64,000 nucleotides of DNA from a virus (lineage: Duplodnaviria; Caudoviricetes): positions 1 to 64,000 of IMG/VR virus record IMGVR_UViG_3300014205_000002; one strand, 5' to 3'. Below the pieces are notes generated by a model. The model searched no databases, was not told where the DNA came from, and worked only from the letters and a program-made list of their open reading frames with translations. The translations under genes were made by a program, and so were the position numbers. Below are positions 2,154-4,933 of this stretch, piece by piece (position 1 is the first letter of the stretch; each line of letters opens with the position of its first letter).

Positions 2154-2482
2154 GGGTCGCAGGTACAGGTTCCGGGGGCGTGCTGCTGGTAGGGGCAGCA
2201 GGTATGCACCTCGTGCTCGCCTGGCGATCGCTCGGAGGGTCGCAGGCATCCCCGGCATGGGCCAATGCTGCGTTGGGCCCAGCGCAGATCGCGCGCGTAG
2301 GCGAGCACGTAATGAATGGGCAGCAGCATGCATAGGAGCAGTGGCAGGGCCGCCCAAGGGCCTGGTGCCGGCAGCCAGCCGAAACCAGCCCCGATCACGG
2401 CGACGATGGTCCCGAGGGGAGCGAGGAAAGAGACGGCAATGTTGCGCTCGGCGGCGCGCAGTCGACGTTCGTATAGCAGCAT
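2150..2482 (-). CDS. small membrane protein
   Basis: Two hydrophobic segments; start overlaps the upstream stop. Confidence 0.55.
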   Translation of the reverse strand: MLLYERRLRAAERNIAVSFLAPLGTIVAVIGAGFGWLPAPGPWAALPLLLCMLLPIHYVLAYARDLRWAQRSIGPCRGCLRPSERSPGEHEVHTCCPYQQHAPGTCTCDP

Positions 2483-2832
2483 CAGAGGGCCAGCGCCTTT
2501 CGGAAGACGGCCAGCGGCACGGGGCCGGTGAGCGCCTGTGTCAACAGGGGGATGGTAAGCGGCGAGCAGACGGAGAGGAAGCGAGGTGTCCTCATGCCGT
2601 TCGCCAGCTCCACCATCGCGGTGAAGTCGTCGATGGTTCGGTGGTGCTGATTCAGCGTGTCGCTGTTCTCGACCACGGGCCAGTAGAACACGAGACAGGG
2701 GCCATCGGGATTGGACTGGTCGATCGAGGGGCCGTGCGTCATATAGAGCGCCCCCGACTTCACATGGAGGTACATACCCGCGCGCACACGCTCGCGGGCG
2801 CTGGTCAGGCGGTGGATCGTCTCCGAATTCAT
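2482..2832 (-). CDS. DUF1653-like protein
   Basis: GMYLHVKSGALY...LVFY...RTIDDF...PRF pattern; GAGG upstream of ATG 2832. Confidence 0.55.
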   Translation of the reverse strand: MNSETIHRLTSARERVRAGMYLHVKSGALYMTHGPSIDQSNPDGPCLVFYWPVVENSDTLNQHHRTIDDFTAMVELANGMRTPRFLSVCSPLTIPLLTQALTGPVPLAVFRKALAL

Positions 2833-2849
2833 CGCGTTCCTCTCAGAGC

Positions 2850-2880
2850 AAAACCCCTGGTGCCAGGGGCTCCAGGGGTT
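2850..2880 (-). terminator. putative intrinsic terminator
   Basis: Minus strand CCCCTGG-CA-CCAGGGG followed by TTTT. Confidence 0.45.
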
Positions 2881-2884
2881 CCGT

Positions 2885-3395
2885 CGTGGTGTGGGAATGC
2901 CGATATTTCCTAGCGGGAGGCCGGTAAAGGCCAGAACCGTCGGCACCTAAACCCATCAAGCTTTCGCCCGAAGTCACCAGGTGCGCCTACATTTACTGAG
3001 TTGAGCCGTGAGGCCCATCAGTCCGGTCAGTGCGTTGACCGGGTGTCCGGTGTCACCAGGGGTGTGGGCCCCAAGCTCTCCCAGTTCGCTCTCGCAGCCC
3101 GTTTCAAGGGGGCAACGAGAGTCCCCAGTAAAGGGGTCGAGTGGGAGTCCGGCGTCGACTGAGTCAAGAGGTGGGCCGATATGACACACCGAGCGAGACC
3201 CAGGAGAGCTGGCCCGAGGGCCGTAACCGGAAACCGGACTTCGACGCGGCGGTTAGACCACCGTATCGCGGACAACCTCGGCAAGGAGGTGGCCCGACCA
3301 CAGGGCCCGAAAGCCCGGTGATTGCGACGGAGTGTTTCCCTTGCGGGCAGCGCCGCCGTCGATGAAGACAGGTTAACCCGAAGTTATCGGAGTCG
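2885..3395 (+). ncRNA. candidate large structured non-coding RNA, unclassified
   Basis: ~500-nt gap without a credible ORF, with more than 10 hairpins and long-range helices; G-U pairs favour the + strand. Confidence 0.5.
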
Positions 3396-3977
3396 TCAAG
3401 TGGTAATACCAAGTTCTCGGCAAATTTCTTTGTGGATATTGGTGTGTGTGCGCCGAGACTGGCGCGCCATGTTTATCGTGGCCCCCGTTCCCCCGCCTCC
3501 TCCATTCCAGCACACGATCAGATGGTCGGTCCGCTTCACGATCTCGCGGTTGCGGGCCATATAGCCGGGGGTGCCGCGCGTCGTCGAGACGATCACGGTC
3601 TGGTCGGCGCGCTTACGCAGCGACCAGTACAGCCGCCAGAGCGGATCGTTCTCGATGTCCGCGGCGGTGATGTCGCGTGGATGCTTGCCAGTGTACCAGC
3701 CGAACTCGTTCTCGGGTGTCAACTCATGGCCCTCAAAAGGCACCATGGCGACCAGCTGGATGTCACACCCCTCCTGATCGCGCAGCTTGAGGACGGCCCC
3801 GGCGAACATCATGTCAAAGCCGTTACCGAAGCCCGAATACGCGATCGTTGGGCCTTTCCAGGCACGCAGCCGTGTGGCAACGTACTCCACCGCCGGAACC
3901 CATAAGCGGGGATCCCGGATGTGACCCAACTTGCTGGGTCGATGCCCTGTACAGCCTAGTCTTGCGCGCAGAACCAT
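3396..3977 (-). CDS. SLOG-family (YspA/DUF1273-like) protein
   Basis: CTGHRP, SGFGNGFD, YMARNREIV, GTGATINMA motifs. Confidence 0.85.
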   Translation of the reverse strand: MVLRARLGCTGHRPSKLGHIRDPRLWVPAVEYVATRLRAWKGPTIAYSGFGNGFDMMFAGAVLKLRDQEGCDIQLVAMVPFEGHELTPENEFGWYTGKHPRDITAADIENDPLWRLYWSLRKRADQTVIVSTTRGTPGYMARNREIVKRTDHLIVCWNGGGGGTGATINMARQSRRTHTNIHKEICRELGITT

Positions 3978-3998
3978 ACAAGCAGTATATCACGCCAG

Positions 3999-4009
3999 TT
4001 GGTCGGTCC
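3999..4009 (-). promoter_or_regulatory. GG[AT]CCGACCAA operator-like motif
   Basis: GGACCGACCAA in the divergent intergenic gap; recurs at 53826, 61429 and 63565. Confidence 0.45.
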
Positions 4010-4019
4010 AGGTTTCGAC

Positions 4020-4025
4020 TATAAT
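4020..4025 (+). promoter_or_regulatory. TATAAT promoter element for the sigma/RNAP operon
   Basis: CTATAATG about 32 nt upstream of ATG 4058, which has a GGAGG RBS. Confidence 0.55.
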
Positions 4026-4057
4026 GATCGTGGACGTAAATGCTCATGGAGGACGTC

Positions 4058-4933
4058 ATGGCCGCACCCGTACACCCCGCTGTCGCGGCCCTCAGTCGCC
4101 TTGAGAAGCAGTCCGCACGCGACCAGCCCTACGTCTACCATGAGAATGGCAAGCGTCAGAGCGAGCTGTACCAGGCGCACGTCGACAAGGCGCGATCGAT
4201 GCGCCGTCGCCCGCTGGGCTCTGGGCACGTCGCCAACATTATGCGCGATCCACGCTACCAGGTCACCTCCGAGAAGCACGGTCCCAGCGAGGGTCGCTTC
4301 ACCGTTGGCGGTGCAGCCCTCGGCGCGGCTGCGACCACCGCGGGGGCGCTCGCGCTTGGCCGCACACCTTTGCGCAGCATCCAGGTTGAAGCGTTACTGG
4401 TCGCTCCGACCATGGGTGCGCTCGCCGGAGCTGCGGCCGGCCGCGCGCTCTCTGGTGCTCCCTCCAAGATGCGCGGCGAGTGGGCGACGGCGGTCGATCG
4501 CAACCGGCCCGGCACCGACGGCCGGCCGCGGGTGCCGCATGTCGACCCTAGGCCCTACCTCAAGAGCGACAAGCCGATCGAGCGCGAGTACGGCCAGTAC
4601 ATGATGGGCGAAGAGGCACCGGTCGATCGCCAGCACTTCGGTCGGGCGATCGGCGACGACGCTTACATTCACCGCATCGAGGAGATTGGCGGCGTCGAGG
4701 GAAAGAACCGCGCGGCAATGGGTCACGCCACGGCCATCGGGGCCGCTGCCGGCACCTATGCGGGGCTGGCCGCCGCCTTCAAAGGTGGTCCTGCTGGCGC
4801 TGCACTCGGGGTCGGCCTGCCGATCGCGGGGATGCTGGCCGGTCACATGGCGGGCAAGGCCATGGGGCAGGATGCTGGCAGCCGTGACGCAGAGCTGCGC
4901 GCGGCGATCGCGCGCACATCGAAAGCGATCTAG
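4058..4933 (+). CDS. glycine-zipper protein, putative internal head protein
   Basis: GGAGG at 4048-4052; two G/A-rich hydrophobic hairpins; LEKQSA near the N-terminus. Confidence 0.65.
   Translation: MAAPVHPAVAALSRLEKQSARDQPYVYHENGKRQSELYQAHVDKARSMRRRPLGSGHVANIMRDPRYQVTSEKHGPSEGRFTVGGAALGAAATTAGALALGRTPLRSIQVEALLVAPTMGALAGAAAGRALSGAPSKMRGEWATAVDRNRPGTDGRPRVPHVDPRPYLKSDKPIEREYGQYMMGEEAPVDRQHFGRAIGDDAYIHRIEEIGGVEGKNRAAMGHATAIGAAAGTYAGLAAAFKGGPAGAALGVGLPIAGMLAGHMAGKAMGQDAGSRDAELRAAIARTSKAI

Follow-up and report, generated by a model that had tools for sequence, protein, structure and literature searches.

A putative large structured RNA in a non-coding gap of a jumbo phage, linked to tRNA-Met in related lineages

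A non-coding gap of 563 bases (2833-3395), located between two minus-strand genes of a jumbo phage, very probably contains a genuine structured RNA of minus sense. We favour, as the probable reading, that it is a stand-alone structured RNA derived from the leader of a tRNA-Met and acting in trans, the latter property being suggested by its genomic context. The DNA analysed here (hereafter the window, 64,000 nucleotides) corresponds to the first 64 kb of G000, a complete 208-kb virus record (208,264 bases), and has a G+C content of about 60-70%. The gap is bordered by the following genes:

3396-3977, minus strand: upstream gene of 193 amino acids (aa), SLOG/YpsA-like as a lead only, with its TGA stop at 3398-3396
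2482-2832, minus strand: downstream gene of 116 aa, DUF1653-like as a weak lead, with its ATG at 2830-2832

Neither of the two proteins reached the Pfam threshold. The upstream protein, which carries a GGGGT motif, gave an Atlas feature score of 0.93 and a TM of 0.77 to YpsA/SLOG clusters, and the downstream protein gave an Atlas score of 0.87 and a TM of about 0.6. A preliminary description of this DNA, made from the letters of the sequence, had seen no credible gene in the gap, which was borne out by our analyses: the short open reading frames of the gap had no Pfam match, and no frame was conserved between the window and the related contig L002. The best six-frame similarity between both gaps (27-31%) was scattered over several frames and interrupted by stops, with the adjacent upstream protein being 66% identical.

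Relatives of the locus were recovered in an 80-kb Logan contig (L002), in two ENA contigs (L011 and L012), and in a near-identical copy from a second sample (L003), in which the RNA is base-for-base identical to that of the window. The L011/L012 lineage was found by an exhaustive search with the downstream protein. The order SLOG/YpsA-like gene, RNA, DUF1653-like gene is kept in the window and L003, in L002, and in L011/L012, with flanking proteins that are 41-66% identical among the three lineages (upstream protein, 66% in L002 and 41% in L011; downstream homologs P0014 and P0015, 44-45%). The gaps align in blocks, of which the 5' domain is common to the three lineages and the 3' domain to the window and L002. 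A profile search of a set of 5.8 billion proteins returned only these three lineages. Further relatives were obtained neither by searching viral_contigs with each flanking protein by itself or with the beta'-like protein, nor by aligning both flanking proteins to viral_contigs, metagenome_contigs and genome_contigs. At the DNA level, blastn against the phage collection gave no match, and patterns of three DNA blocks had 0 matches in viral and metagenome contigs. Two other pattern matches were discarded, one in an AT-rich coding region (L004) that we attribute to chance, and the sole match in genome contigs (L015, an Acetobacterales MAG), which shows no further similarity and compares with about 16 matches expected by chance according to our own estimate. 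A covariance model of the 5' domain (R1) found only the four known copies, and no paralog when the phage genome was searched.

More distant relatives (L005-L010) were reached through homologs of the sigma factor, and neither blastn nor R1 detected a copy of the RNA in them. One of them, L008, whose sigma factor is 54% identical, contains on its minus strand (3256-4435) a stretch of about 1.18 kb that diverges from the sigma operon and in which no convincing gene is seen. This region includes a tRNA (42 bits with Rfam, called Cys by ARAGORN), a tRNA- or tmRNA-like 3' module that scored 15 bits with the tmRNA model, far below threshold, and a block of about 95 nt nearly identical to the sequence that follows the tRNA-Met of L007; an open reading frame of 235 aa on the opposite strand may be spurious. 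The 497 nt upstream of that tRNA were considered as a candidate copy and rejected, given a fold no better than chance (z-score of −1.5) and a homology that was not demonstrable.

Comparison of the window with its relatives delimited the structured core and its parts:

2884-3363, minus strand: structured core of about 480 nt, with a fold z-score of −3.5 and a consensus z-score with L002 of −5.3
3242-3361, minus strand: 5' domain, from comparison with relatives, composed of P1/P1a (3325-3361), P2 (3299-3320), P3 (3269-3296) and P4 (3242-3268)
3045-3239, minus strand: central variable domain, from the alignment with L002, closed by P5 (3233-3239 with 3045-3051)
2995-3042, minus strand: hairpins P6 and P7, the loop ACGCAC of P6 (3023-3042) being identical in L002
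2981-2989, minus strand: single-stranded conserved motif UAGGCGCAC, identical in the window and L002
2887-2979, minus strand: 3' domain, from comparison with L002, with P8-P13 and the internal loop CUAGGAAAUAU at 2903-2913

Helices P1-P3 are kept in all three lineages, and the only four changes that distinguish P4 of the window from that of L002 all keep pairing through G-U. The central domain measures 195 nt in the window and 97 nt in L002, a difference of about 100 nt, and P5, P5a and P5c each show one compensatory double change between both sequences. Within the remainder of the core, P6 carries one double change from C-G to A-U and P11 one from G-C to A-U, while P9 is a hairpin of different sequence in the two lineages. 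The 3' domain also includes a block of 23 nt that is identical in the window and L002 and comprises the loop CUAGGAAAUAU; the sequence CUAGG was found in L011 as well. By eye, a loop containing GGAAA pairs with a strand about 40 nt upstream. Complementary targets for the conserved motifs were absent from the phage genome.

Much of this fold had already been noticed in the preliminary description, since the local helices that it listed are present at their coordinates (P1, P2, P3, P6, P7, P11 and P13), and its long-range helix AGCTCTCC/GGAGAGCT corresponds to P5b. Another long-range helix that it proposed, CGAAGTC/GACTTCG, stood in part: the sequences can indeed pair, but this pairing competes with the covarying helices P5 and P9. 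In RNA sense, it is a helix of 7 bp (CGAAGUC/GACUUCG) between 3237-3243 and 2969-2975, and L002 has a matching alternative of 5 bp (CGUUC/GAACG), in which the same position is changed in both partners. It could represent either an alternative conformer or a chance pairing.

Covariation between the window and L002 was recorded in a pair table of 16 helices and 91 base pairs, matched by hand. Nine pairs were changed on both sides and still paired (two in P2 and one each in P5, P5a, P5b, P5c, P6, P9 and P11), 12 were changed on one side and still paired, 62-63 were identical, and 7-8 were broken in one sequence, the last two counts depending on a single P5c index that was corrected by eye. For the 5' domain in the three lineages, 85.6% of the cells were paired, compared to 32-47% with slid partners; six pairs were changed on both sides, compared to 0-3 in the slid controls, and the covariation score was 0.378 whereas the controls did not exceed 0.149. 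These values have to be read in light of the little statistical power that three independent lineages provide for covariation, and of the fact that the full-length pair table is a hand alignment; P9 and P13 come out misaligned when MAFFT is used (A5). The preliminary description had proposed a multi-domain structured RNA of unknown class. The homologs collected from related phages support this proposal, with a fold conserved through compensatory changes in three lineages and, as detailed below, no match in Rfam.

Folding of the core (2884-3364) was stronger than that of dinucleotide-shuffled sequences. The minus strand had a z-score of −3.5, which none of 100 shuffles reached, and the plus strand one of −2.1, reached by 2 of 100; these values changed to −5.1 and −3.4, respectively, when the flanks were included. 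The RNAalifold consensus of the window and L002, evaluated against column-shuffled alignments, reached a z-score of −5.28 in minus sense (0 of 60 as good) and −1.22 in plus sense, the values for the 5' half being −3.69 and −0.26. Folded alone, L002 gave −3.5 in sense and −1.15 in antisense orientation, and L011 gave −2.1 and −1.2. The loops of P2 and P3 are UUCG in L002 and GUGA, a GNRA loop, in L011, and they read correctly in the minus sense only. In that sense, five G-U pairs are present in the conserved helices of the window and 10 in those of L002, and all of them turn into A-C mismatches on the plus strand; non-standard pairs in the window and L002 amount to 8 and 14 on the plus strand versus 3 and 5 on the minus strand. 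Because the consensus and single-sequence z-scores in three lineages, the UUCG and GNRA loops and the G-U pairs all coincide, and because the orientation of the downstream tRNA-Met in relatives and the conserved promoter and terminator (see below) agree with them, we conclude that the RNA is encoded by the minus strand, co-directional with both flanking genes and not antisense to them.

The opposite orientation had been preferred in the preliminary description, where the RNA was taken as antisense to its neighbours on account of G-U pairs that work on the plus strand. Such an RNA would agree with the folding of the plus strand, somewhat better than that of shuffled sequences both in the core and with flanks, and with a GUGUU/AGCGC helix that pairs on the plus strand only. 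We consider it extremely unlikely: that helix is absent from L002, the G-U pairs that are conserved belong to the minus sense, the plus-sense consensus fold does not surpass that of shuffled alignments (−1.2, and −0.3 for the 5' half), the antisense fold of L002 is similarly weak, and a consensus scan of the plus strand found neither promoter nor terminator. That the gap would be a non-functional spacer or a decayed gene remnant, with pairing due to high G+C, is also very unlikely. The G+C content of about 62% and the few lineages available would be compatible with this idea, but the dinucleotide-preserving shuffles account for G+C content, the 9 double and 12 single compensatory changes hold the helices together while the flanking proteins go down to 45-66% identity, the 23-nt block is invariant, and no remnants of a reading frame were seen in the gap.

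The signals that would define the transcript were read from the sequence as follows:

3394-3399, minus strand: −35 box TTGACG, containing the TGA stop (3398-3396) of the upstream gene
3370-3375, minus strand: −10 box TAACCT, 18 nt after the −35 box, with a 3/6 match to TATAAT
2850-2869, minus strand: terminator-like hairpin CCCCUG-GCAC-CAGGGG plus UUUU, with the next ATG 18 nt downstream
2850-3363, minus strand: proposed transcript of about 514 nt including the terminator, its ends predicted from promoter and terminator

Both the promoter and the terminator escaped a consensus scan, the former because of its weak −10 box. The layout of the promoter is nevertheless kept in four lineages: a TTGACN −35 box overlapping the stop codon is likewise seen in L002 and L011, L007 has TTGACC, the equivalents of the −10 box are TAATCT (L002), TAAATT (L011) and TAGATT (L007) at a spacing of 17-18 nt (TTGACA-17-TAAATT in L011 and TTGACC-17-TAGATT in L007), and the conserved RNA start lies 6 nt after the −10 box in each. 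The pattern TTGAC[AG]-N17-18-TAnnnT occurs at only three sites in the 208-kb genome. At the other end of the transcript (2854-2880), CCCCUGG is present twice before CCAGGGG, so that two mutually exclusive terminator hairpins are possible. L011 has a clear hairpin with a U-run as terminator after its tRNA, followed by an extended −10 promoter (TGCTATAAT) for the next gene, which argues that the RNA and the tRNA form a unit of their own. The hairpin found after the tRNA of L002 has no U-run, and read-through into the downstream genes is likely in that lineage.

A weak hint of expression came from a sediment metatranscriptome of another study, in which one contig of 248 nt, 98% identical, lies wholly within the RNA (3048-3295), with two of its differences falling in a proposed hairpin loop; this contig is single, of low depth and strandless, and may come from DNA carry-over. 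The same run contained no other contig on the 1.9 kb compared, including about 1.6 kb of flanks, an absence which does not count as evidence.

Three related lineages (L002, L011 and L007) carry a tRNA-Met at this locus. In L002 and L011/L012 it comes directly after the RNA, on the same strand, and in all three lineages the RNA or leader is placed between the promoter and the same-strand tRNA. The leader that precedes tRNA-Met is a hairpin of about 50 nt in L007 and extends to about 165 nt in L011 and about 365 nt in L002, and the window has an RNA of about 480 nt and no tRNA. ARAGORN detected no tRNA and no tmRNA either in the window or in the whole genome of 208,264 bases. On grounds of parsimony, the tRNA-Met would be ancestral and would have been lost in this phage as the leader became longer. 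The window has retained the promoter, the terminator, the helices and the invariant motifs, which argues for a function of the RNA that is independent of the tRNA. In the 3' domain of L002 (7630-7645), the sequence GGGUUCAAGU equals the T-arm sequence of the downstream tRNA-Met, and the window has GGGUUUAGGU instead; this match may reflect tRNA ancestry or be coincidental.

According to the reading that we favour, a sigma-70 promoter of host type, overlapping the stop of the SLOG-like gene, would start transcription near 3363. The transcript would then adopt the fold shown by the comparison of lineages, in which the 5' domain (P1-P4) and the 3' domain (P6-P13) are conserved and the central domain (P5) is variable, together with the invariant unpaired motifs, and would end at the hairpin and U-run at 2850-2869. 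Cleavage on the 5' side of tRNAs is the established function of RNase P. In the relatives, RNase P would cut the RNA-tRNA-Met precursor in this manner and release the RNA with a defined 3' end; in this phage, where the tRNA is gone and the RNA has presumably grown, the terminator would make the 3' end instead. The RNA may work in trans through its fold, as a scaffold, a decoy or an assembly, and its closest analogues would be the tRNA-adjacent RNAs GOLLD and ROOL.

Two readings in which the RNA serves a neighbouring gene were weighed against this one. It might be a cis-acting leader, resembling an attenuator or a riboswitch, that controls read-through into the DUF1653-like operon by means of the terminator at 2850-2869. 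The position of this hairpin, whose end is 18 nt away from the next ATG in an interval that lacks a promoter, the two alternative pairings offered by the repeated CCCCUGG, and the long-range helix that competes with P5 and P9 in a switch-like manner in both the window and L002 would fit such a control. We judge it unlikely, however, given that L002 and L011 have a complete tRNA-Met interposed between the RNA and the following gene, that L011 adds a terminator and a new extended −10 promoter after the tRNA, that an RNA of about 480 nt and 16 helices exceeds known attenuators by far, and that riboswitch and T-box models gave no match. The other reading takes the RNA as a mere elaborated 5' leader of the tRNA-Met precursor, concerned with its processing or stability and left over in this phage after loss of the tRNA. 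It draws on the RNA abutting tRNA-Met in L002 and L011, on the leader of L007, where just a 50-nt hairpin stands behind the same promoter, and on the lack of any tRNA throughout the 208-kb genome. Against it, and making it improbable in our opinion, the largest copy is the one that has no tRNA, and in this copy the promoter, the terminator and each of the conserved helices and motifs are still in place. The copy is, in addition, identical in a second sample (L003) and 98% identical in a third, whereas a relic would be expected to decay.

Known classes of RNA were compared with the gap by means of covariance models. A cmscan of the whole window against Rfam at the gathering threshold gave no match in the gap, so that no family accounts for it, and a relaxed search (E up to 10) of window positions 2750-3500 and of the L002 and L011 gaps returned nothing significant except the tRNA of the relatives; hits of C/D-box snoRNA models in the gap (E 1.7-4) were regarded as noise. 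The absence of tRNA, tmRNA and RNase P signatures noted in the preliminary description agrees with these results: ARAGORN found neither of the former two, the Rfam tmRNA model was unmatched in the gap, and so were the RNase P models at E up to 10, so that tmRNA and RNase P RNA were discarded as candidates. A group I or group II intron was rejected as well: no intron model matched, and instead of exons that join into one gene, the gap is bordered by two distinct genes, which have a stop codon and a ribosome-binding site plus ATG of their own and for each of which stand-alone homologs exist. A T-box or riboswitch leader was likewise rejected, with no model match and with a tRNA gene intervening in two of the three lineages. 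The models for GOLLD (RF01998; E up to 10) and ROOL (RF03087) had no match in the window, L002 or L011 gaps.

Small stable RNAs co-transcribed with phage tRNAs are known, for instance from the tRNA region of T4, and ordinary leaders of tRNA precursors are short and unstructured. As in such precursors, the RNA of the relatives shares its promoter with the tRNA and lies directly 5' of it, and RNase P would release it; unlike them, the present RNA is conserved, is built of up to 16 helices and is kept even where no tRNA exists. A comparable way of forming a 3' end is found in MALAT1/mascRNA, where RNase P cuts a long RNA at a tRNA-like element. The downstream tRNA would similarly define the 3' end of a structured non-coding RNA here, although MALAT1 is eukaryotic and nuclear, and in the phages the element is a true tRNA-Met whose processing is predicted.

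GOLLD is a large multi-domain RNA of phages and prophages, located near tRNA genes and composed of one conserved and one variable part; its member env-38 is found downstream of a Met-tRNA, and the linker of GOLLD can itself harbour tRNAs (bioRxiv 10.1101/2024.12.08.627333; PMC5737381). ROOL, which averages 581 nt and has many multistem junctions, also occurs in phages near tRNAs (PMC5737381), and cages composed of RNA only are formed by GOLLD as well as by ROOL (bioRxiv 10.1101/2024.12.08.627333; PMC5737381). The setting described here is GOLLD-like in that the RNA is located in a phage next to tRNA-Met in L002 and L011, though this tRNA is absent in the window. The likeness to GOLLD extends to a large multi-domain organization with a conserved and a variable part, but many GOLLD members exceed 800 nt, compared to about 480 nt in this case, and the present RNA precedes the tRNA. 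With ROOL it shares a similar size, many multistem junctions and a phage location near tRNAs; in contrast to ROOL, no conserved pseudoknots were identified in it, and it is known from three lineages only. We propose that it would constitute an unrelated new class of tRNA-linked large phage RNA and not a member of GOLLD or ROOL, because its sequence and fold are unrelated to theirs by the covariance-model tests, though context and scale are alike.

We also considered, with a rather low probability, that the RNA represents an undescribed class of large ornate phage RNAs with an activity of its own, reached by the gradual elaboration of a tRNA-Met leader and now independent of the tRNA. Such an RNA could form an RNA-only multimer or cage like those of GOLLD and ROOL, or could be a ribozyme or decoy directed at host translation or at the metabolism of tRNAs. 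The palindromic tetramers CUAG and GCGC, which are conserved and unpaired, might serve for self-association.

Non-coding RNAs of bacteria and phages that exceed about 400 nt and have conserved complex folds are rare, and the RNA described here would add a new, unrelated example of a large RNA in a tRNA-linked phage context. The apparent series formed by the 50-nt leader hairpin, the 165-nt and 365-nt leaders and the 480-nt RNA without tRNA outlines a possible route by which such RNAs arise, and offers a handle on why they are adjacent to tRNAs.

The phage genome encodes a multisubunit RNA polymerase and sigma factors of its own. The apparent use of a host-type promoter by a phage with its own RNA polymerase suggests an early role tied to the host. 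A second near-consensus promoter of host type (TTGACG-17-TACGAT) was observed on the minus strand of G000 at about 127,750-127,855, where a GC hairpin with a U-run comes about 35 nt after it, in what looks like a small RNA unit. Finally, the HIP1 octamer GCGATCGC occurs 120 times in G000, compared to about 7.5 occurrences expected from base composition, an enrichment that hints at a cyanobacterial host; the same octamer is also present in the promoter spacer of L011.
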